The notes beneath the pieces were generated by a model, which was not told the DNA's origin, ran no database searches, and saw only the letters and a program-made list of their open reading frames with translations. From sequence record MN176217: a stretch of 64,000 nt of DNA; one strand, written 5' to 3'. A program made the translations under genes and the position numbers. The first letter of the stretch is position 1. Every line of letters starts with the position of its first letter. This document shows positions 1 to 20,244 of this stretch, piece by piece. This DNA is from Escherichia phage vB_Eco4M-7.

Positions 1-34
1 GACGCTGATCAGACTTTAATTCAATGGGTAAGGT

Positions 35-460
35 TTGATAACACTGGCGGCGGCAAATATCGCTACTATGGCGACGAGCGATTCACCACTAAATTCTATA
101 AGGTACTCGACCATGGCTCATGTTAAAGACGAAGTGTTGTATGGCGCAGAAATTAAGAAGCGCGTGCGTGAGATGGCTTCCGGTGGCACGCTGCTGCCGC
201 CGCGCGTTCGATGCGACCATGTGATTGGCGTATCCGGCACGAAGGAGATGGGCGTGTTGGTAAAAGACATTCGCATTGGCGATGTCATGGTCATCGACCG
301 ACAAGCGCGCGTCGTTATCCAGGTACAGCCGAACGATGATGAAGGTTGTGTCCTATTGAAGCTGAAGAAGCTTTCATCAAGCCCAGCGAAGGCCGTCATC
401 AAGAAGGTTTGGCCCGAAGGATTACGCAAACTCATCCGTCGACCCGTGGAGAATGTTTAA
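35..460 (+). CDS. hypothetical early protein
   Basis: ORF track, 141 aa; first gene of a long plus-strand run of small coupled ORFs; no recognisable motif. Confidence 0.45.
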   Translation: MITLAAANIATMATSDSPLNSIRYSTMAHVKDEVLYGAEIKKRVREMASGGTLLPPRVRCDHVIGVSGTKEMGVLVKDIRIGDVMVIDRQARVVIQVQPNDDEGCVLLKLKKLSSSPAKAVIKKVWPEGLRKLIRRPVENV

Positions 461-696
461 TGGAAGATTATATTAACGCCATGTATATGGCATTCTATGT
501 CGTGCAACTTCCCAATGGCGCGGTATTCTATGGCGAGTATACCTTTGACGTTCAATATGACGTTTCAGAGCGTACAGTGTTAACAAGGGAGTTGATTGCG
601 GACCTTAAGGACGACATAAAACGCGTCGCGCGGCAGCAGTTCAATTTGGATGACACAGTCATCGTTCGAATTACCGGAATAACAGAGGTGCAGTGA
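460..696 (+). CDS. hypothetical early protein
   Basis: Internal ATG at 460 (MEDYINAMY...) overlaps upstream stop (TAATGG); ORF track frame 346..696. Confidence 0.45.
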   Translation: MEDYINAMYMAFYVVQLPNGAVFYGEYTFDVQYDVSERTVLTRELIADLKDDIKRVARQQFNLDDTVIVRITGITEVQ

Positions 697-1025
697 TGAC
701 CCGTGATCAGATACTCGCCGCGCACAGACGCGGATCAGTAAAAGACATCTGGAAAAGACACAACTCATTTGCCGAAGCCTATTACTTCTTAAAGAAGTGC
801 ATAAAAGAGAATGTGAGGATGGGCGATACCGTTTTGACATTCAACCTTTTGTCTTATGGCAATAAGCTTAATGCAATATATGCTTGTCGCCTTGCAAGCA
901 TGAGGTTTGATGCAGGCAGCGACGGAGAGTTAACCATCTATCGATTCTCTCACCGGACGGGTGATACAAAGATAACAAGGACAAGGCACGAGATAGAGAT
1001 TGACCTACTCCACTATGTAAAATGA
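693..1025 (+). CDS. hypothetical early protein
   Basis: ORF track 110 aa; start overlaps upstream stop (ATGA). Confidence 0.5.
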   Translation: MMTRDQILAAHRRGSVKDIWKRHNSFAEAYYFLKKCIKENVRMGDTVLTFNLLSYGNKLNAIYACRLASMRFDAGSDGELTIYRFSHRTGDTKITRTRHEIEIDLLHYVK

Positions 1026-1030
1026 ATATC

Positions 1031-1063
1031 AAAAAGGTGAGCTAAATGCTTGCCTTTTCTTTT
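1031..1063 (+). terminator. rho-independent terminator-like hairpin (copy 1 of repeated cassette)
   Basis: AAGGTGAGC / GCTTGCCTT stem with G-U wobbles (1034-1056) followed by T-rich run; same 25-mer repeated at 2285. Confidence 0.5.
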
Positions 1064-1078
1064 ATCAATACTTATACT
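1050..1078 (+). promoter_or_regulatory. sigma70-like promoter TTGCCT-N17-TATACT
   Basis: -35 TTGCCT 1050-1055 (inside 3' arm of the hairpin), -10 TATACT 1073-1078, upstream of ORF 1111. Confidence 0.45.
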
Positions 1079-1110
1079 CTTTTCATCAAGACGAACAAGT
1101 GAGGTGAATT

Positions 1111-1428
1111 ATGATTTACTTAGGCATCGACAAGGAACAAGACGAGCGGTTAGGAAGCGTGTTAAACGTAGACTTGAACACAGCTGTACACATTAAGCCT
1201 TGGCCAGAGGCGCACCCCGACGTAGTTGTACCCGTTGCGCCTTGGACGCGTTACGTGGCCATTGACGATGACGGTCTTGTTCATTGTTATTCAGAAAAAC
1301 CGACATACTTCGAAAAGTATCGCCAATGGCTCATGACTGGATGGGCAAAGGTGCGCTGTTGCGGCGAAGTCGGTCTGGAAGGCTGGAGCTTCGAGGCTAG
1401 TGAATCGTTTGTCGAGGTGCAATTATGA
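1111..1428 (+). CDS. hypothetical early protein
   Basis: ORF track 105 aa; RBS GTGAGGTG upstream. Confidence 0.55.
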   Translation: MIYLGIDKEQDERLGSVLNVDLNTAVHIKPWPEAHPDVVVPVAPWTRYVAIDDDGLVHCYSEKPTYFEKYRQWLMTGWAKVRCCGEVGLEGWSFEASESFVEVQL

Positions 1429-1643
1429 ATGCCGCGCTGGGTAAGTTGTCATTCAACAAGCGTAACGAGCTGCGCATGGTGTCGCGCTTCCAGTTTGTAT
1501 TGAACTCGATGTCGAATCTTGCCATCACGATGCTTCGCGCTGATTGCCCTGCTGAAAAGCGTGAGACTTTATTTGAACGTCACAACCAATTACGAAAGGC
1601 TGCTTATAAGCTGCAGCAATATGCTATGGAGTATGCAAAATGA
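1425..1643 (+). CDS. hypothetical early protein
   Basis: ORF track 72 aa; ATGA overlap with upstream gene. Confidence 0.5.
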   Translation: MNAALGKLSFNKRNELRMVSRFQFVLNSMSNLAITMLRADCPAEKRETLFERHNQLRKAAYKLQQYAMEYAK

Positions 1644-2023
1644 GAATGAAGCGTTGCCCTTACTGCCACGATGTAATGCACCTTCCACACAAAGAGTTTG
1701 TGCAGCACATGACTAACTGTGATAAGAATCCTAAGAGCGAAAGCCAACTTGAAGAAAGAATGTTCTTGGTGTCATTCAAAGCTTCTGCTTATGAAGTGCA
1801 ACGTTCTTACGGCGCACCAAGTACGATTTACTGCCCAACAACATTGAGAAGTGACATTGACTCAATTCAGCTTGCGGCCTGGATTAACGTTAAGGAAGGA
1901 ATCACGCCGCACTTTATTGCACGCATCCAATCTCAGATTCTACAAATCAAGCGCGAATACAACCGTGACATCACTGAAGTGAAGGTGTTGTCTATCACAC
2001 CGATGAATAAGGAGTTGCCGTGA
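1640..2023 (+). CDS. hypothetical protein with N-terminal CxxC...H...C zinc-ribbon-like motif
   Basis: ORF track 127 aa; MRMKRCPYCHDVMHLPHKEFVQHMTNCD. Confidence 0.5.
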   Translation: MRMKRCPYCHDVMHLPHKEFVQHMTNCDKNPKSESQLEERMFLVSFKASAYEVQRSYGAPSTIYCPTTLRSDIDSIQLAAWINVKEGITPHFIARIQSQILQIKREYNRDITEVKVLSITPMNKELP

Positions 2024-2280
2024 ACAAGGGTCCGATGACTAAGTTAGCCGTTGCCGCGCGGAAGCTTCGACAAGCCGTTAATGGGTCGCGGCCCGTGGTG
2101 TTAACACTCGACGACGCAAAGGCACTGGTAGAGCTACTCGACGAGCACAACCGACGCAAGAATCTGGAGAACACATTACGCTGGCGCGTTACTCCGAAAG
2201 GGCGGGAGAGCGAAAAGAAAGCTTACTTGCGGCGTAAACTAAGGTCGGTCGGCCTTCACGAAGAGGCGAAGAATATTTAA
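2020..2280 (+). CDS. hypothetical basic protein
   Basis: GTG start 6 nt after AGGAG; overlaps upstream stop; 86 aa. Confidence 0.45.
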   Translation: MNKGPMTKLAVAARKLRQAVNGSRPVVLTLDDAKALVELLDEHNRRKNLENTLRWRVTPKGRESEKKAYLRRKLRSVGLHEEAKNI

Positions 2281-2286
2281 TTCAAA

Positions 2287-2316
2287 AAGGTGAGCTAAAT
2301 GCTTGCCTTTTTATTT
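2287..2316 (+). terminator. rho-independent terminator-like hairpin (copy 2)
   Basis: Exact repeat of the 1031-1058 hairpin, followed by T run. Confidence 0.5.
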
Positions 2317-2330
2317 GCCTGTATTATACT
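2303..2330 (+). promoter_or_regulatory. sigma70-like promoter TTGCCT-N16-TATACT
   Basis: -35 TTGCCT 2303-2308, -10 TATACT 2325-2330; RBS AAGGAG at 2344. Confidence 0.45.
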
Positions 2331-2352
2331 TAGTTCATCAAGCAAAGGAGAA

Positions 2353-2661
2353 ATGAGTATGAGTTACGACGAAAGGTTTGGCAGAAGCGGATTATTTCAT
2401 GACGCTGTACACAAAGACAGCAAAGATGTTGTCTGCGCATTCAAGGTTGATTCTTACGGTACACTGAAACCTTTTAAGGTCGGCGAAACATACAAGCTGT
2501 TTCACGGCTGGTTGACGCGTCGCAACAACTTGCCTGACATGGAAGTCTGGTGGATAGAATACAAGGGTCAGGCTCATCGTTGCAAGGTTGTAGAGGTGCG
2601 CGGCGTGGAATACTATCAATCTGTTATCAGCGGCTTTGTTTTTAAAGAGGGTGAGCTATGA
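2353..2661 (+). CDS. hypothetical protein (FKVG-x-TY paralog family)
   Basis: ORF track frame 2299..2661 trimmed to ATG after AAGGAG; shares FKVGETYKLF motif with ORF 3646..3987. Confidence 0.5.
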   Translation: MSMSYDERFGRSGLFHDAVHKDSKDVVCAFKVDSYGTLKPFKVGETYKLFHGWLTRRNNLPDMEVWWIEYKGQAHRCKVVEVRGVEYYQSVISGFVFKEGEL

Positions 2662-2978
2662 GTACCGAAGCGATGAAGAAAAAGATTTTGAACGCTTTGC
2701 AAGAAGCCGTGAACTGTGGTGCAATTAAAGAGTTCAAGGAGACGCAAGAAGGCGGTGAGCCAGTATTCTTCTTTAAGAATAAAAAGGACGGTGTTGCAGC
2801 AATCATGCTATTAAAGAATAGCGATGACACATTTGTTCTTTGCGTCGGCGGGTATGACCTTGTTGCAGACGATATATTCATAACCTGTGCTGGCAGCCTT
2901 GACACTGTTCTGACTTTTTCGCGTCGCGACATCCGTGTTGCAACGTTCGGAGGGAAATATTATGACATCCAACCTTAA
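2658..2978 (+). CDS. hypothetical protein
   Basis: ORF track 106 aa; ATGA overlap. Confidence 0.5.
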   Translation: MSTEAMKKKILNALQEAVNCGAIKEFKETQEGGEPVFFFKNKKDGVAAIMLLKNSDDTFVLCVGGYDLVADDIFITCAGSLDTVLTFSRRDIRVATFGGKYYDIQP

Positions 2979-3126
2979 AGCCCGTTTGTTATTCATCAAG
3001 CTGCATGTGCCATATAAGATTAGTAAGCGCACCTGGCTTAACATTTACAACCGCGGCGGCGACCGTTGTTTGTACAAGGCAAAGCGGCGCAAGAAGGTAT
3101 ATTCTTACACAACATCAATCAAATAA
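2962..3126 (+). CDS. small basic hypothetical protein
   Basis: ATG at 2962 after GGAGGG; in frame with ORF track 2935..3126. Confidence 0.3.
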   Translation: MTSNLKARLLFIKLHVPYKISKRTWLNIYNRGGDRCLYKAKRRKKVYSYTTSIK

Positions 3127-3142
3127 ATAGGATAAGACAACA

Positions 3143-3646
3143 ATGAAAATCGAACAACTCGAAGCAGTATTGGAAATGGCTGTGAAGGCAGGCGCAATCA
3201 GAAGCTATAGCCGCGAGAAGTCGGATGACGCTGCGCACTTTTGTCGCAACTTCTATATTGTCGGCAACCTTAACGACCACTACACCATCGAGTGGTATAC
3301 TAATATGATGACGCTTAAGTCGCGCACCATGGAGCTTTGGTGCGATGACATCTGCTTATCCAACACCCATCCATCCTACGACGTTGCGTTGGCATTCTAT
3401 TACGGAAGCCGTCAACCTGTCGCCCACATCGGTGAGAAGCATGAGCATCTTAAGGCGCGACCAGAGGAATCAATGGAAGGTTGGATTGAATGGGCTGGCG
3501 GCAAGAATCCGGTGCCTGGTAAGAAGGTCATGTTGATGTGGAGGAATGAAGAGAAGTCTTCTTATTCATCCAATTCAGAAGGATGGCTATGGCAGCACAA
3601 CGGAAGCGTTTATGACATCATTGCTTATCGCGTCGTGGAGGAATAA
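3143..3646 (+). CDS. hypothetical protein (shares C-terminal NPVPG...AYRVV domain with 4790..5221)
   Basis: ORF track 167 aa; C-terminus GGKNPVPGKKVMLMWRN...YDIIAYRVVEE. Confidence 0.55.
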   Translation: MKIEQLEAVLEMAVKAGAIRSYSREKSDDAAHFCRNFYIVGNLNDHYTIEWYTNMMTLKSRTMELWCDDICLSNTHPSYDVALAFYYGSRQPVAHIGEKHEHLKARPEESMEGWIEWAGGKNPVPGKKVMLMWRNEEKSSYSSNSEGWLWQHNGSVYDIIAYRVVEE

Positions 3647-3987
3647 TGGAAGAGCAAGAAGGCCGTGAGCTCACGTTCGACGAGCAGATGCAAGAGCTTC
3701 AGCGCACATCGCCGCTGCGCGGTAAGGTTGTTGACATCGAGGCGAGCGAATCCAATCTCACCCAGTGGCGACTCAAGTGCACCAGCACAAGCAAGGATAT
3801 GTTAAGCTTCAAAGTCGGTCAAACCTATTTGCTTTATGAGGCAAAAGGACTTATTATTGATGGAAGGCAAATTGTCTTCACAGTAGTCAGCGGAATGCGT
3901 TGGTTCGTGAAGCGTGATGTCGAGGGCCGTGACATGTTTGTCGCAGGCTTTCCAGAAGCAAGATTCCAATTGGAGAAGGTTAAATGA
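3646..3987 (+). CDS. hypothetical protein (FKVG-x-TY paralog family)
   Basis: ORF track 113 aa; SFKVGQTYLLYEAKG. Confidence 0.5.
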   Translation: MEEQEGRELTFDEQMQELQRTSPLRGKVVDIEASESNLTQWRLKCTSTSKDMLSFKVGQTYLLYEAKGLIIDGRQIVFTVVSGMRWFVKRDVEGRDMFVAGFPEARFQLEKVK

Positions 3988-4316
3988 AATTGAAATGGTA
4001 TGTGGACCCTGAGCCGACAGGCTCATACAGGTCATTCCAACGTCGCGGCTGGCCGATTTGTTACAGCGGCAATCCCGATAAAGAAGACTGCGAGATGATC
4101 GCCGCGATAGTAAGTCTTAACCATGACGGCTATGAAGGCCACTATGCGAGAGCAACCAACCTTCGGCTCAAGGTGCGCATCCATTTCAAGGTCGCAGGCG
4201 AGGACCGCACCGGACTCTCTAAGGAAGAGTTCAGCAGCATTGCCGAAGCAAAGGCATGGCTCAAGGCATTCTATAAGAACAACCCTAAATTCTATCCAAC
4301 TAAGGACGCATCATGA
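3984..4316 (+). CDS. hypothetical protein
   Basis: ORF track 110 aa; ATGA overlap. Confidence 0.5.
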   Translation: MKLKWYVDPEPTGSYRSFQRRGWPICYSGNPDKEDCEMIAAIVSLNHDGYEGHYARATNLRLKVRIHFKVAGEDRTGLSKEEFSSIAEAKAWLKAFYKNNPKFYPTKDAS

Positions 4317-4501
4317 CTAATAAAACACAGCTCATCAATTTTGAAGGCAAAGAATACGAAATAGACGCTCGTGCGCGATTCGTTGCGCGCGATTCTAACG
4401 GAACCATCTGGGCGTATGAGGGTAAACCTGCATGGAACGATTGGCGCGGCCAGTGGGGGATATGCAATTGGCGATTCACTTTGGTGCAAGCAAATTGGTG
4501 A
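4313..4501 (+). CDS. hypothetical protein
   Basis: ORF track 62 aa; Trp-rich. Confidence 0.4.
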   Translation: MTNKTQLINFEGKEYEIDARARFVARDSNGTIWAYEGKPAWNDWRGQWGICNWRFTLVQANW

Positions 4502-4508
4502 TGGAAAG

Positions 4509-4805
4509 ATGTTCGAAGAGAACAGACCAGCATCACGTGATTCATTAAAGGAAGTGGCAGAAATCAAAATCCAAGACCAAGCGCCATCGACCGATAACCA
4601 ATATGCAGTCGGGCAACGTGACATCGAGCAACTCGACGAGGGCGGCTATTATACGCGCCACATCTATGCCATGACGCATGAAGGACTTTACAGCAAGTCA
4701 GACATCGCCGCTGAACTGGCCCATCGTGACTTGCAAATTGACCTTCTCAAGATAGAAGTGCAAAACTTACGCAACACCCTTTTGAATACTTGGAGCTTAA
4801 AATGA
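4509..4805 (+). CDS. hypothetical protein
   Basis: ATG at 4509 just after upstream stop at 4501, in frame with ORF track 4371..4805. Confidence 0.45.
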   Translation: MFEENRPASRDSLKEVAEIKIQDQAPSTDNQYAVGQRDIEQLDEGGYYTRHIYAMTHEGLYSKSDIAAELAHRDLQIDLLKIEVQNLRNTLLNTWSLK

Positions 4806-5221
4806 CGCAACGTTATGATGTTGATTATTGCACGCAGCACGCTTGCACCTGCGAAGTTGTAAAGGATGATGAAGGCGGCTACGTTGAATATGAGGACTAC
4901 GCCGCGCTGGAAGCGAAATACAGTGAAGCGCAACGCGAGTTGGTTGCATTACGCTCACAGGTCCGTGATGCGTCGGTGCTCGTTAAGCAGTTGCATGACG
5001 TTGTTGCTACTATAGGCGTGGATGATGCGCCGAAGGAGGAAGCGTGGACCGTTTGGGAATCCAACGCAACCAATCCCGTCCCAGGACGTATGGTGATGTA
5101 TATGTTGCGCGACGGCTATGAATCTAAATCACCTGTGCTTTCCGATGGGTTGCGTTGGGAGATGATGGGACTGCCACACGGAACGGACATCGTCGCTTAT
5201 CGGGTTGTTAAGGAGGGGTGA
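4790..5221 (+). CDS. hypothetical protein (paralogous C-terminal domain to 3143..3646)
   Basis: ORF track 143 aa; alternative ATG at 4802; C-terminus NPVPGRMVMYMLRD...DIVAYRVVKEG. Confidence 0.55.
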   Translation: MELKMTQRYDVDYCTQHACTCEVVKDDEGGYVEYEDYAALEAKYSEAQRELVALRSQVRDASVLVKQLHDVVATIGVDDAPKEEAWTVWESNATNPVPGRMVMYMLRDGYESKSPVLSDGLRWEMMGLPHGTDIVAYRVVKEG

Positions 5222-5754
5222 TGGGTAACGATGCAGGATGGGGCAAGCCGCGATACTCAAAACTTGCCCACTACTTTGACGACGGCGAGCAAATCAGCTT
5301 GTGCGGTAAATTCAGCAAAGGCAATACAGAGTTGACCGACGCTCAAGAAATGGAATCAAGTTTAACAATTGGTGATTGTTCTAAATGTCGCAAGGCATTA
5401 TATGAGTTATTAACTCTAAGGGGATTGGAAGCGGCAAAATCAAGGGATGAATGGGTCATTAACGTCTGTGAAGGGAATCCAGAATTAATGGATGAATGGC
5501 TAAAGACGGATGCTGTTAATGCCATTTTCAAAAGGCATTATAAAACTTGTATGCGTTACAAGATGAATGATGATATTATTTTTATGGTATTATCTTATTC
5601 AAGGAGCACAATGGACGTCAAAAAGCTTCGACAATATCGCCACAAGGTAATGTGTGAATTACGCCGTTTAGGAGTGATTGTGGATAATAATGTTATTAAA
5701 ACGGAGTTAAAGAAGCGTGATAAAAGGAATGGTGACTGGAAGGTCAGCGGATAA
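5218..5754 (+). CDS. hypothetical Cys-containing protein; last gene of early operon
   Basis: ORF track 178 aa; 3' third is AT-rich with an internal AAGGAG-ATG at 5612. Confidence 0.4.
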   Translation: MMGNDAGWGKPRYSKLAHYFDDGEQISLCGKFSKGNTELTDAQEMESSLTIGDCSKCRKALYELLTLRGLEAAKSRDEWVINVCEGNPELMDEWLKTDAVNAIFKRHYKTCMRYKMNDDIIFMVLSYSRSTMDVKKLRQYRHKVMCELRRLGVIVDNNVIKTELKKRDKRNGDWKVSG

Positions 5755-6180
5755 AGAACATTGATTCGTGTGTTTTGAAGAATGGAATGTGTACAATTGG
5801 TCGCTTTACGCGGCCTTTTTGTCGTTTGGGTCGTGTTTTGTGATAGAATAATTATGACGAGGTGTTTTATTTATTAATTGTGCGGAAATATTTAGAAATA
5901 TATACAAACAGGATTGTTAATATTTTAATAGTGTATGGCTATTGGTCCGTGGTGTTTGTTAGATTCTATCTATGGATTGGATTTTCTTGGGTCGTGGAAC
6001 GTGGTTTTGAACACATTTGATACGCCTAAAATACGGTTAAAAATTAAGCGTATCATGGCTGCAGGCCGCGCCGTTCCTGGATTCCTATTTTCAAAAGTGG
6101 TACACCCTTACGTCATGATACGTCATGGTTTTCTATCCGTAAGAGTGTACAGCCCTTGCCGCGCCTGGCTTGTACATTAA

Positions 6181-6326
6181 TCTTACGGATGATACGGATA
6201 AAACTGAGCATCGTTATATATAGAATTCGAAAAATTAATTAACTCCATTTTAAAAACATTTATATTAATTTTTTTCATATCCTCATACTTATGTTAATTT
6301 ATATATTTAACGTATCATCCGTAAGA
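6181..6326. repeat. inverted-repeat element A: TCTTACGGATGATACG arms flanking ~110 bp AT-rich core
   Basis: 6181-6199 TCTTACGGATGATACGGAT; 6311-6326 is its reverse complement; extra ATACG boxes at 6018, 6112, 6355-6378. Confidence 0.8.
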
Positions 6327-6606
6327 TATAAGTAAAAACAAAGACTTGCGGCAATACGGATGATACGTCATGATACGCTTCAACCAGCCAGCAGCGGCTA
6401 AGTCATTGATTTGCATAACAAGCGGCGAAAGGGATGGATTTCTTTTATACGTATCAAACAGTACACCACGCACCACGGTCCGCAATCCTATTTGCACTAT
6501 GATTTGTGTACGTTTATAGCCATAATGAACATCAATCTGCACTTGAATATAATGTCCATCCATTGTATAATTCACACTATTAATTTGCACTATGGGATTT
6601 TGCACT

Positions 6607-7080
6607 ATGAGTCAAGATTATGTAGCGATGCCTGAAGACTTTGAAGACCCGCGATTCGCAGAGCACAATCAGGCTTTATTCGATGAGTTCATTGACCTTG
6701 TTATTCAGGGCCATGACATGCGCGCAGCTTTTGCACTAGTATTTGGAATGGAAGTTGCAACGGATAACTACACTGGCCAGCGAATCCTTTGCACGCAACG
6801 CAATCCATACTACAAGATGCGCTTCAAAAAGCGTATGGAAGAGATGCCACTCAAGGATTTGTGGAGCGTAAAAGGTGCAATTCACAATTTGGTCAAGCTT
6901 GTGCGTGATCCAGAAGTCGCAGCGTCAGCCAAGCTTAATGCTATTCGTGAACTGAATATCATCTACGACATCACGATGATTGATGAAAACGGCAACAGCA
7001 AGATGGGCCGTTCCATGGACGATTTCTACAAGGATTTTGGAGAGGCGGCCAAAGAAGGCGAGCAATTCTCCCGCCACTAG
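6607..7080 (+). CDS. putative HTH DNA-binding protein, possibly terminase small subunit-like
   Basis: ATG at 6607 overlaps the third TTTGCACTAT motif; N-terminal FDEFIDLVIQGHDMRAAFALVFG resembles small-terminase HTH (recalled pattern, not searched). Confidence 0.35.
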   Translation: MSQDYVAMPEDFEDPRFAEHNQALFDEFIDLVIQGHDMRAAFALVFGMEVATDNYTGQRILCTQRNPYYKMRFKKRMEEMPLKDLWSVKGAIHNLVKLVRDPEVAASAKLNAIRELNIIYDITMIDENGNSKMGRSMDDFYKDFGEAAKEGEQFSRH

Positions 7081-7099
7081 CCAATTTGCACTATAAAAC

Positions 7100-7133
7100 G
7101 GCCCTAGAACACATTGTCTCCAATTCTAGGGCC
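7100..7133. other. 10-bp perfect stem-loop GGCCCTAGAA/TTCTAGGGCC
   Basis: Inverted repeat just after the stop of 6607..7080; no obvious U-tract. Confidence 0.5.
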
Positions 7134-7508
7134 ATCGGTAATACGACGGGGAAGGTTGCAACCGTAAACGCGTTAGAAAGTGTATTATTATAAGTCATCT
7201 TTTAGTCACCTTACGTAACAATTTACGACCTTCAACCGTCCAATCGAACGACTCCACCAGCAGATTCGCACTATAACCTAAGACCACTCGACCCTTCTCG
7301 TTATCGACCCGCCAGCAAGTCTCGAATAGCATTCGATTTGCACTATTAACTATTGCTGCGACTCGCGTAGGATAAGCGCAATTTGCACTATGGTCGTAAA
7401 GGGATAAGGTGCGACCACTTCCGATGGACAACGTAGCGATGAGAATGAGCGTATTCATAAGCCACCAATTTGCACTATGAAAAGCGACCCCGAAGGGCCG
7501 CCATTCGA

Positions 7509-8135
7509 TTAGATAATCTGGAAGGTGTAGGACTTGTTGCCGAACTCGAAGTTCAAGCGTCCAGCTTCTTTAAGCTTCATGCGGAAGCGAATATGCTTGC
7601 TATCCGGCAAGCCCAGCGCGGCGAACGCTACGCGGACCGATTTGAACTCGCCTACACCCTCGACCATAACGCCGTTACGGGTGAGACGCTTTTGCGCCAC
7701 TTCTTTATTATCCCAACTTTTTGCAATACCTTTGCTATTCGAACGGCGATGGGAAGGAATTGCAATTTTATTCGCTCCAACCGGAGCATCATTAAGGCCG
7801 CTTTTAACGAAGGCTTCATATTCTTCGTCGGTCATCGCGTCGAGTTCTTCCTGGGTCGGCTCGGCCTTTTTAACGACCGCGCGCGCCTTATGCGTTTTTA
7901 CATCACTGGACACTTCCTCGCGAGACTTTGCGTCTGGGATGGGCGATTCGTTGGACGGATCATCGAGCGCGTTTAAGGATTCGATTAACGCGATTACGCG
8001 AGTCTCAGCGGTGCGACGGTCCGCGAATTTTTTAATCGGCTTTGAGCCTGAATTTTCGTTATAGAATGCAACGAGGTCGGCGGTCTTGGTTGCGATTACG
8101 TCGCCGCTGGTGGAGAAACGATTCAAACTGGCCAT
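7509..8135 (-). CDS. hypothetical protein
   Basis: ORF track 208 aa; strong RBS AGGAG 8 nt upstream of ATG; protein-like composition unlike the overlapping plus-strand ORF. Confidence 0.6.
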   Translation of the reverse strand: MASLNRFSTSGDVIATKTADLVAFYNENSGSKPIKKFADRRTAETRVIALIESLNALDDPSNESPIPDAKSREEVSSDVKTHKARAVVKKAEPTQEELDAMTDEEYEAFVKSGLNDAPVGANKIAIPSHRRSNSKGIAKSWDNKEVAQKRLTRNGVMVEGVGEFKSVRVAFAALGLPDSKHIRFRMKLKEAGRLNFEFGNKSYTFQII

Positions 8136-8180
8136 AATAAACTCCTAGTTTGGGAGCGGTGTCAACGACCTATTCGTTAA

Positions 8181-8243
8181 CTCATCCGTCCCGATATGAG
8201 TACATTATAATATAGTGTAGAAAAAAAGTAAAGCACTTTTTCG
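8181..8243 (-). promoter_or_regulatory. promoter-like element (minus-strand copy)
   Basis: Reverse complement reads CGAAAAAGTGCTTTAC...TACACT...TATAAT, near-identical to the 8664 element. Confidence 0.5.
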
Positions 8244-8275
8244 ATAAAAATGAGATAAATTATTTTATCTTTTTT

Positions 8276-8318
8276 CTTTACTTCTTCGTACACTCGCGTA
8301 TACTTGTTTATATCGAGA
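8276..8318 (+). promoter_or_regulatory. promoter-like element (copy 2)
   Basis: CTTTACTTCTTCGTACACT (exact 19-mer shared with 8674) + TATACT 8299-8304 + GTTTATATCGAGA. Confidence 0.5.
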
Positions 8319-8360
8319 CGGGCGATGGCCCTTCCTTCTAATAGCATCGGGAGTTTTATT

Positions 8361-8663
8361 ATGACCACTTTAATCTCTTCTATCCTTACTTACGACGAAG
8401 ACCGTTTAACCGTTCGCTCTCTTATCGCCGCCGTTAACGCGGAACTAGAATCCACCATTATTAAGGTCCGCGCGGTCGCTTTCGTCGGCCTTTCCTTCGA
8501 CGATATTAAGTACGCCGAACGTAGCGTCATCCGCTTCGCGAAGACCGATGACGAAGCCGTTACCCTTATCGAGACGGTTACGCCGCGCGGCGAAGCGTTA
8601 ATTATCGTCGAGTATATCGACGTAGAAGGCGATAAGGCTTATAAATATTTTATCGCAAAATAA
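8361..8663 (+). CDS. hypothetical protein
   Basis: ORF track frame 8304..8663, start moved to ATG 8361 after GGGAG; CpG-rich codon choice. Confidence 0.5.
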   Translation: MTTLISSILTYDEDRLTVRSLIAAVNAELESTIIKVRAVAFVGLSFDDIKYAERSVIRFAKTDDEAVTLIETVTPRGEALIIVEYIDVEGDKAYKYFIAK

Positions 8664-8717
8664 CGAAAAAGTGCTTTACTTCTTCGTACACTAAGACTAT
8701 AATGTTTTATATCGAGA
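8664..8717 (+). promoter_or_regulatory. promoter-like element (copy 3)
   Basis: CGAAAAAGTGCTTTACTTCTTCGTACACT, TATAAT 8698-8703, GTTTTATATCGAGA. Confidence 0.5.
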
Positions 8718-8770
8718 GGGGATGAGGTAGCGAATAGGTCGCTACCCTCCCGACTAACTAGGAGAATATT

Positions 8771-9061
8771 ATGATTACTTTAGCCGCTATCCGCGACGCT
8801 CGCGTCGAGACTTCCGAAAATTCCAACGTATTTGGCGAAAAGCTTAAAAACGTCTATCTTTTTAACGTAGACGCAACTATCGAGCCTATTTATGAGCCGA
8901 TCAACTTCCTCGACCTTTACAAGTATCGCGACGAGGACATCGTATCATCCCGCGTAACGATCAACGGCTTCGTCTATACGATTACCGAAATCGGCGGCGA
9001 ATATCTCGCGGTCCCGCAACTCGGCGGCGAAGTAACTTTCTTTAAAATCGTAAGCCTGTAA
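8771..9061 (+). CDS. hypothetical protein
   Basis: ORF track 96 aa; RBS AGGAGAA upstream. Confidence 0.55.
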   Translation: MITLAAIRDARVETSENSNVFGEKLKNVYLFNVDATIEPIYEPINFLDLYKYRDEDIVSSRVTINGFVYTITEIGGEYLAVPQLGGEVTFFKIVSL

Positions 9062-9072
9062 GGAGAAGGAAG

Positions 9073-9282
9073 ATGACTAATATGAATAATTCTCTTAACG
9101 CGCGCGCCCATCGCACCGCCGTAATCGATATGTTCCGCGAGCTTAAGGAATTATGCGATAATATGAACGCGATGTTATCCATCGGCGGCTGGGGATACGA
9201 AGAAGAGGTTAAATACGCGGTTATGCGTCGCCGTCGCGATAACGTCCTTGGACAAATTAAACGCGCCGGATTATTCCTTTAA
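9073..9282 (+). CDS. hypothetical protein
   Basis: ORF track 69 aa; RBS GGAGAAGGAAG upstream. Confidence 0.5.
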   Translation: MTNMNNSLNARAHRTAVIDMFRELKELCDNMNAMLSIGGWGYEEEVKYAVMRRRRDNVLGQIKRAGLFL

Positions 9283-9307
9283 TTATAATTACCCACCGTT
9301 ACTAATA

Positions 9308-9333
9308 GGCCGCGCTTAGTCGCGGCTTTTCTT
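9308..9333 (+). terminator. rho-independent terminator
   Basis: GCCGCG-CTTAGT-CGCGGC hairpin followed by TTTTCTT. Confidence 0.6.
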
Positions 9334-9453
9334 CGTCCCTATCTCGATGCGCTTCTCCGCGAAAACTCCTTTATCCTTCCCTTCGTCGTCGCATAATCTT
9401 CGTCGAGATGCGCCTTAGTTCGCATAACAGGTATTACGTTAAATGGAGAACAT

Positions 9454-9526
9454 CGCGTAAGTCGTTGTTTTATATAGACACATATATCGGACCGTTAGGG
9501 CGGGTCGCGTAAGTCGTTGTTTTATA
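9454..9526 (+). repeat. direct repeat of 21-mer CGCGTAAGTCGTTGTTTTATA (two copies)
   Basis: Copies at 9454-9474 and 9506-9526. Confidence 0.8.
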
Positions 9527-9987
9527 AAGGCGCAAAACTTTCCCTTCGTTCCGAACTAAAACGAGAAATATGCCGACCCTTCGCCCGAAAATAGTACGCA
9601 TGCGAAATTACATGCATCTCGAATAATCCCCACCGATACTATCCTACACGCAATCATTCGCTTTCGAATCATTATGCTTCATATTATCATGCGTCGAATC
9701 ATTCGCTTTCGAATTGTAACGCTGGAAACTGTAACGGCGATTGATTATTGCGTTCGTGTGGTTTTTATGGCATGGGTCTTTTGGTGCGTTTTGCTACTTG
9801 ATGGAATTTGCGGTACACTAATCAAAATACGACACATTTGGTCCACTAACTTTTCAAAGAAAAAGTCCTAGACAGTACCGTACTATTTTGTACCCACAGG
9901 AAATTTGCAGTACACTCCTGCGCAGCAGGCAAAATAAAGGGCCGCACTAAGCGACCCACGATTCACGGTTAAAGCAACATCCACCCA

Positions 9988-10389
9988 CTATTCAATCTTA
10001 TGGGCATCACCAAAACCATCAGCAATCTGGCTGATCAACGACTCAATGGACACAGTTTTACCAATTGATCGAGCGGTAATAGCAAGCATATTATCAATCA
10101 AGCCACGATTGACTTCACATGTTCCAGGCTTTAACTCATCTTCAGAACAACCAAAAAGCTGGTCGCGCAGACTTTCAAGAGAACGCTCAATATTTTCCAA
10201 CTTCTCTTCTAAATCGGATTGGCGACGTAAAACCCATGTCAAGTCACGGTTGCCGACTTCCAATCCATCAGAATAGCAAGGTGGAGCGTCAATTTTGATG
10301 CTGGAACTAAAAGCAGTGCCGCTGCCTTTAGTATAAGTATGGCTCATAGAATCATTTTGGCTCATAGAATCATTTTTATTTGACATATC
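9988..10389 (-). CDS. hypothetical protein with tandem N-terminal SMSQNDSMS repeat
   Basis: ORF track frame 9988..10452, start trimmed to ATG with AAGG RBS; tandem 17-nt repeat at 10340-10380. Confidence 0.5.
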   Translation of the reverse strand, partial: DMSNKNDSMSQNDSMSHTYTKGSGTAFSSSIKIDAPPCYSDGLEVGNRDLTWVLRRQSDLEEKLENIERSLESLRDQLFGCSEDELKPGTCEVNRGLIDNMLAITARSIGKTVSIESLISQIADGFGDAHKIE

Positions 10390-10483
10390 ATTACCTTTAA
10401 TATTTGGGTGATTAACAATAACTATAATAAAGCCGCATAGCGCGCCATTCAAATCGATTTATTAATTGTGACGATTGGATTCA

Positions 10484-10711
10484 TCAATCGATACAAATTG
10501 TGCAGGGTCGCCGGATACAGTTGCGCCGATGATACCCATCTGAGAGAAAAAATTCTGAATAAACTTCCTTCCAGTACTTACGCGCTGCTTTCTGGGCTTG
10601 ACCTTTGCGCTTGAAGCTTTTACCTTGAAATATGAAGCGGTCTTTTGGTGCGTAATACTCCACCACACCTTCCAGCCATTGTAAGAACGCTACTGATTCA
10701 TTTTTATTCAT
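10484..10711 (-). CDS. hypothetical protein; possible +1 frameshift or homopolymer error at T6 run
   Basis: Two overlapping ORFs (10484..10711 and 10462..10668) join at a T6 run near 10545-10552. Confidence 0.35.
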   Translation of the reverse strand: MNKNESVAFLQWLEGVVEYYAPKDRFIFQGKSFKRKGQAQKAARKYWKEVYSEFFLSDGYHRRNCIRRPCTICID

Positions 10712-10718
10712 ATTAACC

Positions 10719-11114
10719 TCAATATTTTAATAAGAAAGCACCCAACCAACTTTCCTCAACCTCACGGCCAGTAGCCACACGGTCGGTCTTGGCTATGGGT
10801 CTGTATTCGCCACAGGGCAATCCGTCTTGTAGTTGTGTACTATTGCCAATTCTCACCAGAACCTTTCCATCAGGGTCGATATAAGCGCGACAACCCATGA
10901 TTTCGAGTCGTTGTAGACACTGGCGAATCGTTTTCAGCTTCTCACCGGACCGGATAGAGCGCGGTCGCGACCGCTGACCGTTTTTATTCACTGTACGCTT
11001 GGCGACCGGAATATCATTGGTGCGTTGCGGCTTGGGTCGGTAATAAGCCTCTTCGCCAGGAGTCGCACCTGGCGTCAGTTCGCGCTTGAGCGCCTTTTCA
11101 ATATCAATGATCAT
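10719..11114 (-). CDS. hypothetical basic protein
   Basis: ORF track 131 aa. Confidence 0.5.
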   Translation of the reverse strand: MIIDIEKALKRELTPGATPGEEAYYRPKPQRTNDIPVAKRTVNKNGQRSRPRSIRSGEKLKTIRQCLQRLEIMGCRAYIDPDGKVLVRIGNSTQLQDGLPCGEYRPIAKTDRVATGREVEESWLGAFLLKY

Positions 11115-11117
11115 GAT

Positions 11118-11216
11118 TTATGCCGCAGCAGCGTGGATGATTGCGTAAACGATTCCAAACAGGGCGACAACACAAACCGTGCCCCAAAATGCAAAGCGTC
11201 GTGCCTCTTTATCCAT
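11118..11216 (-). CDS. small hydrophobic protein (32 aa, single predicted TM helix)
   Basis: Hand-translated MDKEARRFAFWGTVCVVALFGIVYAIIHAAAA; RBS GGAGAAGGG 6 nt upstream; below ORF-track size cutoff. Confidence 0.4.
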   Translation of the reverse strand: MDKEARRFAFWGTVCVVALFGIVYAIIHAAAA

Positions 11217-11496
11217 TAGACCCTTCTCCGCTGTTAATGTTGTCTAGAATCAAGGTTGGAATTTCATCTTGAGTTCTGACTTTGTAATGCGAAGGCATTT
11301 TGCTTTCTAACAATGCCTGTTCGGCTTCTCCCTTTGTCTCAAAGAGCGGGATGCACCAATCAACTGCATCGCCATGTTCATCGCCTGTAACGGCTTTCAA
11401 AAAGACAAGGCGTTTGTCTGCAGGGTCGATTCCGCAAATTAAGTATTTTGGAAGAGCCTTTGCTTTCTGAGCCTTATCAATATCTTCAAATTTCAT
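11209..11496 (-). CDS. hypothetical protein
   Basis: ORF track frame 11209..11508, start at ATG 11496 (MKFEDID) with GAGGTG RBS. Confidence 0.5.
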   Translation of the reverse strand: MKFEDIDKAQKAKALPKYLICGIDPADKRLVFLKAVTGDEHGDAVDWCIPLFETKGEAEQALLESKMPSHYKVRTQDEIPTLILDNINSGEGSNG

Positions 11497-11577
11497 AAAA
11501 CACCTCACTTGTTAACGTATAATGAGTATAACTTAATTGCGCATAAAGTAAAGGCGCTTTTCAGCGCCTTGAGTGAA

Positions 11578-13917
11578 TTATTTTGCTGCTTTCAGCGCGG
11601 CTATCTCTGCCTCGAGAACCTCGATGCGGTCCATCAATGCAAGAATAGCCTCGTGGTGCAGTGCTGCTGCTACGCCTGGTGTGTTGACAGATTTTATGTT
11701 ATCCAACGTCGAACCGTCGCGCAGAGTAACAGGCGATGACTGTGTTTCAGATACTGCTTCAGGAAAGTCTTTCTCTACATCCTGGGCGATGAAGCCAAAA
11801 CCGACGGAGCCATTAGTTTCCAGAGTCCATGCCACGCCTCTAATATTGCGCATCTTGACGAGTGGATCAGTGATCCGCTCAATGTTACTTTTAATACGTT
11901 CATCAGATATACTCCGCCACTCCTGACACCTTGCTATTCCATCGGAGCCAAAAAGATAAGAGGCCGCGCCGCCTGTCCCGCTGTAAACGTTCAATTGAGC
12001 GCGGTCCAGCGCGGTCGTGCTACTCCTTATGCCTCCGAGAATCCAGCTTCCGCTGTACCAGTCACCGCTGATTGAGTTTACAAAATTTCCTTCTGGAACG
12101 TTGGCATAGTTTTGAATCCTTATGGCGTTGTTTTCTGCAGCAGCAACGCCTACTGAATTAACTGGGGATGCAACAAGGTCTTTAGACCGGATATATGCAT
12201 CAACAAATATTGTTCCATCAGGGCGCAGAGTTCCAATCTGGGATGTGGAATTTGGCAACACCAATTTGCCATCTTGGTTAAATGCCCACTCTTGCACCCC
12301 ATTAGATATCACCGCACCTTGTTCAGATGTTAATCCATCAATCTTGCCGTATGCCTGCAAGAATGCTTGATACGCGATGTTCGTGCCAATCTTATATTCA
12401 GATTTTACACTACCGCCTCTGACAAGCGTTCCGGTTGCAGGTTTTACTGCGTCACCATTAATGACGCTCCAAGTCGTATTCGCGGCAACAAATCCACCAG
12501 ATGCACGAATCACCCAAACACCTTCAAAGGCATTAGGTCGAATTTCATTCGCATCATCACGTCCATAAGCGCCATTTGACAGCGATGCATCAAAGTTCAC
12601 GTCTACATAATAACCATCAGAAGTCCCGCGCATACTTCCAGCAGTTTTTACTATTTTTGGCTCAAATGCGCCATATCCTCGCGTCACGCCAGAGGTGCCG
12701 AATGCAGTAAGCATAGACACATTAGGTGAACCAGAAATATTTGGTGCAGCACTCTGCCTGACACGACCGTCGTTTGAAGATACACCTCCATCACCACGCC
12801 CGAATAAACCTGGGATTGAGCCTGCTTGAACGCCGTTGCGGTCTGGAACTCGAAATGTAGTTGTGCCGTTGCCTAATGAATACTTGCCGCGTTTCGCTGG
12901 GTCCGCTAACCAATCTGCATCAGCAATAGGCGAAAGCATTTGCGCATATGCCCAAAGTTCAGGCCAATCTGCACGATTGAGTAATTGGCCGTCAGAAACG
13001 ACTTCGTAAGGCTGGATGTAAGCACGACTGTCTCGCAAGTGGAAGTCGCCGACGCCATAGTTCATAACACCGTTCATGCTTGGGCCAACGGTGCCTGTGT
13101 TCACTAAGTTCTCAACCCAACGCTTGGTTGCAGCATCATAATCGTTTACCGGATCACCAGCAAGCGGAGTCGGCCCTTGTGGACGAATATTCAACCAAGC
13201 TTGAGCATTGTCTGCTGATCCTGTGCCGCCCATTGAAGTTGGAACGATGCTTTGATCAGCGACTTGTCCGAATCCAAAAGCAGACTTCATCCCCTGTATG
13301 GTAGTTTGACCTGTGCCGCCATTTGCGACTGGTATAACGCTTTGCGTGTTATAAACTTGAACCCAATCAGACCAGGATGATATATCGACGCTATACAACC
13401 TTTGGTATACTGTGTTTATCCAGTAAGGCGTGTATCTCTGCACACAGCTGTTCGTTGAAACTCCCGTTTGTAAAACTTCAAGTATTCCAGCTTGTTCTAC
13501 AGGATAGTTGAGTGCTGTTGACGCCCCAGCATTAGTCGGTTGGTAATATTGACCGAACCAGCTTCCGTTCAGCGCGTTAAGGTTTATGCCATTAGGAATT
13601 ACGCCAAAGTTTCGGACAGTACCCGTCAAAGTCGCGGCAGTAGTTCGAATGGAAAGCATATCACCAGCCGCCCAAGCACGCGCTGCAGTACCTTCCTGTG
13701 CACGCTGCACGGTCAGGACGTTTCCAACAACGGCTGTTACTGTGACGATTTCGAATTGGAGGCCTGTTGCGGCGTCAACGATTGTCGCCACTACACGCTC
13801 GTTTGCGCCCAAGGTCGGAAAGCCCGACCCTGAGCGAATTGTGATTGTGGTGTCTGAAGTCGTCGTTGGCTGAGCGAGCGCGACCTCAAAGTTGTTTTTG
13901 AATATTAGCCTTGGCAT
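11578..13917 (-). CDS. tail fibre/spike protein with C-terminal intramolecular chaperone (peptidase S74-like) domain
   Basis: 779 aa; Gly/Thr/Asn-rich fibre-like body; C-terminal SDERIKSNIERI...ALMDRIEVLEAEIAALKAAK resembles the autoproteolytic chaperone domain of phage fibres. Confidence 0.7.
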   Translation of the reverse strand: MPRLIFKNNFEVALAQPTTTSDTTITIRSGSGFPTLGANERVVATIVDAATGLQFEIVTVTAVVGNVLTVQRAQEGTAARAWAAGDMLSIRTTAATLTGTVRNFGVIPNGINLNALNGSWFGQYYQPTNAGASTALNYPVEQAGILEVLQTGVSTNSCVQRYTPYWINTVYQRLYSVDISSWSDWVQVYNTQSVIPVANGGTGQTTIQGMKSAFGFGQVADQSIVPTSMGGTGSADNAQAWLNIRPQGPTPLAGDPVNDYDAATKRWVENLVNTGTVGPSMNGVMNYGVGDFHLRDSRAYIQPYEVVSDGQLLNRADWPELWAYAQMLSPIADADWLADPAKRGKYSLGNGTTTFRVPDRNGVQAGSIPGLFGRGDGGVSSNDGRVRQSAAPNISGSPNVSMLTAFGTSGVTRGYGAFEPKIVKTAGSMRGTSDGYYVDVNFDASLSNGAYGRDDANEIRPNAFEGVWVIRASGGFVAANTTWSVINGDAVKPATGTLVRGGSVKSEYKIGTNIAYQAFLQAYGKIDGLTSEQGAVISNGVQEWAFNQDGKLVLPNSTSQIGTLRPDGTIFVDAYIRSKDLVASPVNSVGVAAAENNAIRIQNYANVPEGNFVNSISGDWYSGSWILGGIRSSTTALDRAQLNVYSGTGGAASYLFGSDGIARCQEWRSISDERIKSNIERITDPLVKMRNIRGVAWTLETNGSVGFGFIAQDVEKDFPEAVSETQSSPVTLRDGSTLDNIKSVNTPGVAAALHHEAILALMDRIEVLEAEIAALKAAK

Positions 13918-13955
13918 TTTACGGTCCTCGTTTTGTCGACAACCGTATTATAACC

Positions 13956-14297
13956 TTAATTTCTTTTGAGAGGAATATGACGGTTGCTGTCATTATTTGG
14001 TTTAATAATGAGCATAAAAACGATTAGAAAGATGATGGCTGATATACTTAATTCAATCAGCGCGGCTTGAGATATGGATTGATCTTCATGATACTGCTTT
14101 TGCATTTCCGCTTTCTTTTGAGCGCAAACTTCAGGTGATATATAATCGCCTTTTGAGTTGCCATAATAAATCTCGCCATTCTCAGAAATAAGCCTGCCGC
14201 AAATATCCGTTTCAGCCTTTGCACTTGACATCATAATAACGGTGCCAATGATAGCAGCGATTGTCCAGATTAGCAGTTGTGATAAAGTGTTGTTCAT
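13956..14297 (-). CDS. membrane protein (N-terminal signal/TM and C-terminal TM)
   Basis: ORF track 113 aa; hydrophobic segments at both ends. Confidence 0.5.
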   Translation of the reverse strand: MNNTLSQLLIWTIAAIIGTVIMMSSAKAETDICGRLISENGEIYYGNSKGDYISPEVCAQKKAEMQKQYHEDQSISQAALIELSISAIIFLIVFMLIIKPNNDSNRHIPLKRN

Positions 14298-14492
14298 GAT
14301 AACCTCTTTAATTCCCTTCCCGATGTGGGAAGGGTGAATATTATTTTACGCGAAAGAATAGGCGCGTGCCACACAGCGAGTCCCAACGGCCCTCACCATC
14401 CCATATCGACCCAACACCAGCAGCGATTGGTCCAGCAGAATTGGCGGCATTGGCCCAGGCGAGTCGTTTAAGCTTCCAACTGCACCAACGAT

Positions 14493-14744
14493 TCACAGTT
14501 CGCCTCCAGACTTCAAAATTAATCCCGCATAGATTATTGCCAGAGCTAAAGGCTCACCGTCGCCAGCCTCTCTATTCTCTTTGATTTGAAGAGTATCCTT
14601 AAGGAATTGCAACTGAACGTTAAATTCATTTTCAATCCCAAGCGTCACAGCCAATTCTTTTACAGAATCTGCATATGCCTTGTCTAGCACTTCTTTTGGT
14701 ACTTTTAAAGTTAATTCACTTGCCATTTTCTTTCCACTCCACAA
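14493..14744 (-). CDS. hypothetical protein
   Basis: ORF track 83 aa; alternative start at 14726. Confidence 0.45.
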   Translation of the reverse strand: MWSGKKMASELTLKVPKEVLDKAYADSVKELAVTLGIENEFNVQLQFLKDTLQIKENREAGDGEPLALAIIYAGLILKSGGEL

Positions 14745-15152: not shown

Positions 15153-15240
15153 ATTACCTCCGGTTTTGAGTTAATATGATTATAACGCAGACTTTCAGAA
15201 AGGCAAACTTTTTGTGAATTATGCCGTCCATGGCATTGTA

Positions 15241-15471: not shown

Positions 15472-15485
15472 GGTTTACTCCTGAT

Positions 15486-20243: not shown

Positions 20244-20244
20244 T

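Follow-up and report, generated by a model that had tools for sequence, protein, structure and literature searches.

The window analyzed here comprises 64,000 nucleotides from Escherichia phage vB_Eco4M-7 (MN176217). The region of interest, 852 bp at positions 5755-6606, is 100% identical to the corresponding sequence of Escherichia phage vB_Eco4M-7n and 88-97% identical to those in 27 other records, all of which belong to Wifcevirus, a group of E. coli and Shigella myoviruses with genomes of about 68 kb. The gene map of the window (Table 1) is based on open reading frames (ORFs) and their matches to PHROG, Pfam and PDB. To the left of the region lies a block of small genes closed by a terminator-like hairpin; the annotators of phage WFC also mark similar terminators close by. 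To the right lies terS, the gene for the small terminase subunit, the product of which has a 41% identical homologue in Pbunavirus E217; in phage Mansfield, the first sizeable gene is annotated as the terminase small subunit. The 208-aa protein encoded next to terS has a predicted model with two small confident domains and might conceivably be a DNA-binding partner. A second non-coding region, upstream of the gene for the head-maturation protease, contains an element with the same architecture, and terS, terL and the portal gene all lie between the two elements, which are denoted copies A and B. A RepB-like primase is encoded as well and, just beyond the edge of the window, a VapE/D5-like helicase.

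Table 1. Genes and sequence features associated with the two elements in the 64,000-nucleotide window
Feature	Positions	Strand	Remarks
Small genes	35-5754	+	
Non-coding region with copy A	5755-6606		
Terminator-like hairpin (intrinsic type)	5799-5815	+	closes the small-gene block
Copy A, left flank	5755-6179		sequence variable, features kept
Copy A, left-flank boxes	GATACG 6019 (+), 6049 (-), 6117 (+); TCTTACGGAT 6135-6144 (-); GCCGC 6065, 6158		
Copy A, left arm ATCTTACGGATGATACG	6180-6196	+	17 nt, perfect
Copy A, core	6197-6310		114 bp, 82% AT, partly dyad-symmetric
Direct-terminal-repeat region	6247-9862		left end exact; right end 9862 (WFC-type records) or ~9781 (Mansfield, PhageTerm); PMC6563267, PMC6753283
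Copy A, right arm	6311-6327	-	17 nt, reverse complement of left arm
Copy A, right flank	6328-6480		first ~230 bp of packaged DNA
Copy A, right-flank boxes	TACGGATGATACG 6355-6367; GATACG 6372; CGTATC 6450; GCGGC 6348, 6394, 6422		
TTTGCACTATG boxes	6490, 6583, 6598		near the promoter-like site of terS
Sigma-70-like promoter, TTGAAT-17-TATAAT	6543-6571	+	5' of terS
terS (small terminase)	6607-7080	+	phmmer E=2.2e-34 to PDB 7UXE (TerS decamer of Pbunavirus E217; PMC9611059)
Mostly minus-strand genes, including tail fibre	~7.2-14.3 kb		
208-aa protein gene	7509-8135	-	adjoins terS in all four genera, 37-48% identity
TerL	15589-17049		
Portal	17835-20243		
MuF-like head protein	20182-21096		
ORF	21011-22024		plus a 45-aa ORF
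Non-coding region with copy B	22174-22587		
Terminator-like hairpin	22179-22194	+	left edge of the intergenic region with copy B
Copy B, outer GATACG boxes ACGTATCATACGTATC	22216-22230	-	
Copy B, left arm	22255-22280	+	ATCT plus two tandem 9-bp units TACGGATGATACGGATGATACG
Copy B, core	22281-22380		100 bp, 82% AT; homologous to core of A, lacks AACTCC|ATTTT
Copy B, right arm	22381-22402	-	22-nt perfect complement of 22259-22280
Copy B, right flank	22403-22500		GCGGC 22419, 22492; GATACGGAT 22433; two more arm units 22460-22477 (-)
Sigma-70-like promoter, TTGCCT-17-TATAAT	22536-22564	+	5' of the head-maturation protease gene
Head-maturation protease	22588-24006		followed by capsid and tail genes
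RepB-like primase	61912-62994		

A sequence-only reading of this DNA had described the 5755-6606 region as non-coding, with an AT-rich core held between inverted arms and surrounded by additional short boxes, and this description largely holds. There is no convincing ORF in the region, where one relative carries an annotated weak minus-strand ORF (6315-6563). The perfect inverted repeat is real, but its arms are 17 nt long rather than the 16 nt claimed, and they enclose the AT-rich core. The boxes containing ATACG, perceived as extra sites around the arms, correspond to GATACG at eight positions, 6019(+), 6049(-), 6117(+), 6191(+), 6311(-), 6362(+), 6372(+) and 6450(-), and the GCCGCGCC boxes to GCCGC at 6065 and 6158. 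The second copy, placed 16 kb away, is confirmed as well, with arms at 22259-22280 and 22381-22402 around a core at 22281-22380; it aligns colinearly with copy A, in the same orientation, over ~170 bp that include the arms and the core.

The two elements stand out from the rest of the window by several measures. Apart from the arms of A and B, the 64 kb contain no perfect inverted repeat of 17 nt or more with a loop of at most 150 nt; at a minimum length of 13 nt and the same loop limit, all such repeats lie in A or B, compared to approximately none in shuffled sequence. The 13-mer TACGGATGATACG occurs in eight exact copies, three in A and five in B, and nowhere else in the 64 kb; when up to two mismatches are allowed, there are 12 matches versus 0.87 expected. 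The two elements also contain 17 of the 35 GATACG hexamers of the window. The cores of A and B are the two most AT-rich 100-bp segments of the 64 kb (85% compared to 54% overall) and, when folded as single-stranded DNA, the elements form long imperfect hairpins (z=-5.2 for A and -6.6 for B relative to shuffles), with the dyad symmetry extending into the cores. The IHF consensus was uninformative, with one match in the right flank of A, none in B and seven in the window, as was a search of IMG/VR for an exact 14-mer of the arm motif, which yielded at least 120 loci, nearly all of them chance matches.

The sequence-only reading had named absence of the element from related phages as a result that would count against it. 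Copy A is present in 28 of the 28 Wifcevirus records, with no presence/absence polymorphism, and analogues exist in four other genera. Different parts of the element evolve differently within Wifcevirus. In the subgroup that includes WFH and ECML-117, the sequence of the left part (5755-6179) is swapped out wholesale, with the boxes retained. The 170 bp beyond the right arm are almost invariant among the seven distinct Wifcevirus sequences, and the right arm itself carries a single C-to-T mismatch in many relatives.

The deposited genome ends and published terminus calls place both the left terminus of the genome and the left boundary of the direct terminal repeat between positions 6246 and 6247, within the core of copy A. 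All Wifcevirus records that carry or annotate the ~3.6-kb direct terminal repeat start at the base equivalent to 6247 of the window. These include WFC, WFH, Ro157lw (USA) and SP13 (both repeat copies in the record), as well as Mansfield, in which the repeat, 1-3673, is annotated as “predicted by PhageTerm”; the WFC record opens with ATTTTAAAAACATTT, which is base 6247 of the window. For WFC and WFH, a terminal repeat of ~3.7 kb has been reported by Korf et al. (PMC6563267). The sources of these assignments are genome depositions and statements in print, and the start of an earlier record may have been taken over by some depositors. The terminus is located 6-7 bp off the dyad center of copy A, in the loop at the apex of the predicted hairpin, and terS starts 360 bp inside the left end of the genome. 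The junction sequence AACTCC|ATTTT is invariant in all Wifcevirus copies of A that were examined. A Logan contig from an unrelated run, ERR1301472, starts exactly at the base equivalent to 6247, and in one ENA contig, homology ends exactly at this base; short contigs (3.4-3.9 kb) from these two sources have variable ends, and these two coincidences, one start and one loss of homology, amount to anecdotal support.

More distant relatives were located through TerS homology, and the same relationship between the element and the genome end recurs among them. In Pantoea phage Kyle (Kylevirus), with a TerS that is 43% identical and a 3,603-bp repeat, the record starts in the AT-rich core, 356 bp upstream of terS. 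In Serratia phage MTx (Myosmarvirus), the repeat called by PhageTerm (1-3566) begins within the homologous core, at a distance of 376 bp from the downstream terS homologue. For Pseudomonas phage JG024, Ipoutcha et al. (PMC10913387) observed that 36 of 161 long reads began at 59,376 +/- 5, in agreement with a pac restriction fragment, and this position maps to the AT-rich core of the homologous element, in the interval separating the primase gene from terS. The same base opens the records of five further Pbunavirus genomes that were deposited independently (BrSP1, E2005-C, Pa193, phage 109 and PB10), and the pac site of SCUT-S1 has been reported to lie in an AT-rich region (PMC6521218).

Thus, the record starts at 6247, together with the positions in Kyle, MTx and JG024 that fall in the homologous core, point to copy A as a packaging-initiation and terminus site. 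A reproducible end of virion DNA is found here, as attested by deposited records and papers, and the site adjoins the small-terminase gene, in an arrangement that is alike in the four other genera examined. Judging from deposited genome ends and from statements in the literature, cleavage to initiate packaging probably takes place in the core of copy A throughout the group. Taking all the evidence together, we consider it likely that copy A is a pac-like site for the initiation of DNA packaging, with the first terminase cut made in the core. None of the four roles put forward in the sequence-only reading was that of a packaging-initiation site, the one best supported by the evidence. Regulator-binding sites bracketing a bendable core, one of those four, come close in form, provided that the binders belong to the packaging or replication machinery.

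The two-copy layout, with A upstream of terS and B upstream of the head-protease gene, is maintained in four genera; in Kyle, MTx and Pbunavirus LBL3, the second homologous element occupies the intergenic region before the head-protease gene, at a distance of 16-18 kb downstream from A. The repeats that flank the cores differ between genera: TACGGATGATACG in Wifcevirus, GGTTATT plus ATATCCGAA in Kyle, CGAAAAG in MTx, GGTAATTTGG in Pbunavirus and TAACTA in BcepF1. Within each genome, however, the arm motif is common to A and B, as would be expected if a single sequence-specific protein, co-evolving with its sites, bound both copies.

A second class of boxes is common to all these genera, namely, the pentamer GCGGC (consensus H-GCGGC-W-R), the same class as the GCCGC boxes mentioned above. 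These pentamers are strikingly polar. Within 230 bp of the core center, across 8 elements from 4 genera, the boxes read GCCGC to the left of the core in 18 of 19 cases and GCGGC to the right in 22 of 22 (Fisher p=9e-11, with the boxes not fully independent given that A and B, and the genera, are related). The only exception is half of a terminator hairpin. Copy A of BcepF1, from a fifth genus, conforms to this polarity, with four boxes to the left of the core and three to its right. When the whole window was scanned without bias for the polar pattern, a single maximum emerged, at 6246, with copy B tied for second place and 0.4% of the positions scoring that high. The signal is in the orientation, the enrichment in GCGGC density being only about 2-fold. 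Copies of A of the ECML-117 type keep the polar boxes with an unrelated left-flank sequence, and this survival of the pattern where the surrounding sequence is no longer alignable points to selection acting on it.

These features suggest a scheme for the initiation of packaging. Terminase would make its first cut in the AT-rich core, between 6246 and 6247, creating the left physical end of the virion DNA and the left boundary of the repeat. Proteins would bind the inverted TACGGATGATACG arms, the ATACG boxes outside them and the GCGGC pentamers, which point outward, and could assemble into a recognition complex with two-fold symmetry that straddles the core; a core that melts or bends readily would thereby be offered to the terminase nuclease. 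A role like that of cosB of lambda or pacB of T7 might fall to the 170 bp on the right side of the cut, which hardly vary. The candidate binders are TerS, the conserved 208-aa neighbor and a replication protein. Of these, TerS suggests itself first as the putative arm binder, but its E217 homologue was reported to show no appreciable DNA binding in vitro (PMC9611059).

Functionally, copy A is closest to the classical pac sites with flanking repeat clusters and is the direct homologue of the putative pac of Pbunavirus. In the pac site of phage P1 and the pacL-pacC-pacR region of SPP1, clusters of repeat boxes are located on both sides of the cleavage region, at or beside the small-terminase gene, and packaging is one-directional. 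Copy A resembles these sites in that putative recognition boxes lie on both sides of the cut, terS is adjacent and packaging would likewise proceed one way, but the ends of Wifcevirus genomes are fixed, with a 3.6-kb direct terminal repeat, as opposed to the permuted ends produced by headful packaging; furthermore, copy A has an 82% AT core with inverted, polar boxes on its two sides, and there is a conserved second copy. The Pbunavirus site (59,376 in JG024, and that of SCUT-S1) shares with copy A the location upstream of an E217-type terS, the AT-rich core containing the cut, the flanking repeats and the polar GCGGC boxes. The differences are that Pbunavirus genomes are permuted as a result of headful packaging, in contrast to the fixed ends and long repeat of Wifcevirus, and that the arms are GGTAATTTGG instead of TACGGATGATACG. 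At the concatemer junction of T7 and T3, pacB and the origin-promoters phiOL and phiOR are located near the ends, the T7 repeat is 160 bp long, and promoters for the T7 RNA polymerase are needed. Wifcevirus shares with these phages direct terminal repeats, precise ends, packaging signals just within the left end, the need for a step that duplicates the repeat, and origin-like AT-rich elements tied to the formation of the ends. It differs in having no phage RNA polymerase, a far longer repeat of 3.6 kb and a symmetric, repeat-flanked core.

A model of packaging alone leaves unexplained the conserved and apparently uncut second copy that is located 16-18 kb away in four genera. Its conservation in these genera, with arms tracking those of A, shows that copy B is functional and, to judge from the shared sequences, very probably bound by the same factor or factors as A. 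Copy B may be a further site of complex assembly that escapes cutting and either assists packaging or serves as a replication origin; these two options, replication origin or auxiliary terminase site, lead among the readings of the boxes and copy B. None of the Wifcevirus records starts in copy B, and AACTCC|ATTTT is present, in Wifcevirus, only in A. In Kyle, the core of B is nearly identical to that of A around the cut. Among the 268 Pbunavirus records, one, E215, was opened inside the core of the B analogue, without redundancy; this opening is within chance, or could reflect an assembly break in the AT-rich hairpin or occasional cutting at B.

That both copies are replication origins, or an origin and a cis-acting replication region, with the packaging cut at A being secondary, is a substantial possibility, albeit one that we rate short of probable. 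Under this scenario, the iteron-like 9-bp repeats and the inverted GCGGC pentamers would load an SF3-type (VapE/D5-like) helicase and an AEP primase head to head, and terminase would exploit the origin adjoining terS, so that this explanation overlaps with the packaging model for A and competes with it over the boxes and copy B. Both A and B display the layout expected of an iteron origin, in which recurring short boxes stand on either side of a putative AT-rich unwinding element. No other spots in the 64 kb are as rich in AT as the two cores, the dyad symmetry reaches into them, with the single-strand folding scores given above, and the pentamers are polar and inverted on the two sides; such a symmetric architecture around an AT-rich core fits an origin at least as well as a packaging site. 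Comparable layouts, with iterons flanking an AT-rich region, are found in P4 ori/crr, SPP1 oriL/oriR and the SaPI origins. The likeness to P4 ori and crr, the SaPI/PICI ori and SPP1 oriL/oriR extends to replicon-specific short repeats, the presence of two related sites per genome, and a phage-encoded primase/helicase initiator, the gene for which is adjacent to the element in three of the five genera; specifically, in Pbunavirus, Myosmarvirus and BcepF1, the primase(-helicase) gene directly precedes copy A. In contrast to these origins, one copy here coincides with the packaging cut, and the replication function is putative. In Wifcevirus and Kyle, the helicase gene lies away from A, and an origin alone does not account for the mapping of the genome ends to the core of A in four genera. 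Cumulative GC skew, used as an origin indicator, is uninformative because its turning points occur only where gene orientation switches. Guo et al. noted that the pac region of Pbunavirus “could be a replication origin” (PMC6521218).

The packaging and replication functions could also be combined in a dual-use module, an SF3-helicase-type origin of which each genome holds two, the one nearer terS having been recruited for cleavage by terminase; we offer this as a speculative and rather unlikely synthesis. The outward GCGGC pentamers and the genus-specific iterons around the unwinding core would constitute the origin, and rightward firing from the left boundary of the repeat would copy the 3.6-kb repeat locally, providing one for each packaged genome. 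The headful Pbunaviruses would employ the same module as a pac site.

Another explanation, in our estimate also rather unlikely, confines copy B to packaging, as a non-cleaved second binding site for the terminase recognition complex that either pairs with A or titrates or positions TerS. T4 provides an analogy in the form of two homologous gp16-binding sequences, in genes 16 and 19, which have been proposed to come together before packaging, but this synapsis model is itself not firmly established. The arms, core and polar boxes that A and B have in common in each genus, the placement of the two copies on either side of terS, terL and the portal gene, and the confinement of the cut sequence to A in Wifcevirus are all compatible with an auxiliary site, although the near-identity of the two copies at the cut in Kyle implies that sequence alone cannot explain why B would remain uncut. 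The TerS of E217 has been proposed to build higher-order ring assemblies, but the same study reported no DNA binding by this protein in vitro (PMC9611059).

A role in the transcriptional control of late genes, with promoters or UP-like elements in the cores and the repeats acting as operators for a phage regulator of terS (A) and the head-protease/capsid operon (B), seems improbable. Each element does precede a late gene, with a terminator-like hairpin on one side and a promoter-like site on the other, and the annotators of LBL3 and JG024 predicted sigma-70 promoters within the homologous cores (PMC3008698). However, for both elements the strong promoter matches (10 of 12 positions) are displaced from the core by 200-250 bp to the right, the matches inside the core are weak (9 of 12 positions in the core of A), and promoter-like sites are, overall, no more common than in shuffled sequence. 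Moreover, unlike a general late-gene operator, the arm motif is found nowhere else in the 64 kb, two-fold symmetric polar boxes spread over ~400 bp are atypical of a promoter, and the genome end in the core is left without explanation.

The remaining proposals of the sequence-only reading, a miniature inverted-repeat mobile element or a small non-coding RNA locus, draw on the terminal inverted repeats spaced ~130-150 bp apart, the two copies per genome and the good folding of the elements as single strands, but have very little to recommend them: the mobile element was rejected given that there are no target-site duplications, only two copies, fixed syntenic positions in four to five genera and genus-specific arms, and a known non-coding RNA was rejected given that a search of positions 5000-23000 on both strands produced no Rfam match at E<=1, with each element situated between a terminator-like hairpin and a promoter-like site, the cores being 82% AT and the arms, taken as unvarying, giving no covariation signal.

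The genome start and the terminal repeat of these phages are already on record, in GenBank features and genome announcements, as is the AT-rich pac region of Pbunavirus. In the literature searched, Pbunavirus included, we found no description of the anatomy of the element, of the cut at the dyad center or of the conserved second copy, and none of genus-specific arms that co-vary between A and B or of outward-pointing GCGGC boxes.

Little is understood of how phages that carry long direct terminal repeats select their ends and duplicate that repeat. Here, the cut is pinned to one base (6246|6247) within a symmetric box architecture that spans four to five genera, including the therapeutically used Pbunaviruses of Pseudomonas. 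Copies A and B provide defined DNA substrates for studying the binding of TerS, the helicase and accessory proteins, and the structure of an E217-type TerS has been solved. For the synthetic rebooting of Wifcevirus and Pbunavirus genomes, the fragment junctions and the ends of linear assemblies should respect the copy A site; for vB_Eco4M-7, a system of in vitro assembly and rebooting has been published (PMC11074155). If true, the dual-use module would be a concrete mechanism for the generation of long direct terminal repeats. The conserved copy B, 16 kb away from the packaging site, is the part that still merits study.

In the subgroup of Wifcevirus relatives comprising ECML-117 and WFH, copy A, the inverted-repeat element with an AT-rich core upstream of terS, resembles copy B, the second such element upstream of the head-protease gene, more closely than the copy A of the window does (ECML-117 1440-1640 compared with window 6160-6350). 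The copy A of this subgroup contains a tandem pair of arm units, the short repeats that form the inverted arms of both elements, together with a CGCGTCGCCGC stretch. This B-like form suggests either that the two copies have undergone gene conversion or that the subgroup has kept the ancestral state.

The record of Pseudomonas phage E215 (NC_042080.1), which lacks terminal redundancy, is opened within the AT core of its copy-B analogue, with 329 bp separating this point from the head-protease gene downstream. The opening may reflect an assembly that broke in an AT-rich hairpin, or it may hint that copy B is cut. A short ORF directly ahead of copy B (Table) has counterparts at the equivalent position in phages Kyle, MTx and LBL3. 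The AT-rich segment upstream of the portal gene contains neither the arm motif nor the polar pattern of GCGGC boxes.

Repeats are also found on both sides of the terS start codon, the last upstream copy of TTTGCACTATG overlapping the codon itself, and an alternative start is available. At the other end of the terminal repeat (window 9640-9870), a degenerate array precedes the right end, which differs by depositor, being placed at 9862 in WFC-type records versus about 9781 in the PhageTerm call for Mansfield. The motif CAGTACACTAATCA, located close to this array, also occurs in Pantoea phage Kyle next to its right end, and the right ends of both Kyle and Mansfield lie about 33-35 nt upstream of it.

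Features of the window
Feature	Coordinates	Strand	Remarks
TTTGCACTATG, three copies	6490-6609		immediately upstream of terS
Alternative terS start	6592		in-frame ATG
terS start codon	6607		
TTTGCACTATG, variant fourth copy	6730-6745		within terS
Degenerate repeat array	about 9640-9760		AATCATT(A/C)GC and AATTGTAACG
CAGTACACTAATCA	9815-9828		
AT-rich segment	17732-17831		82% AT, third in AT content among 100-bp windows; directly upstream of portal gene
45-aa ORF	22035-22172	+	hydrophobic C-terminal half

In BcepF1, the small-terminase homologue (NC_009015.1, 20082-20486, minus strand) is not annotated in the record, and the small plus-strand ORF calls spanning this region, BcepF1.058-.060, are probably spurious. 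Numerous contigs about 68 kb long, filed as E. coli in NCBI, ENA and the Logan assemblies, carry near-identical homologues of the protein encoded at window 7509-8135, and one single homologue occurs on 48 contigs. Thus, it seems that Wifcevirus genomes are often carried along in public sequencing data for E. coli.
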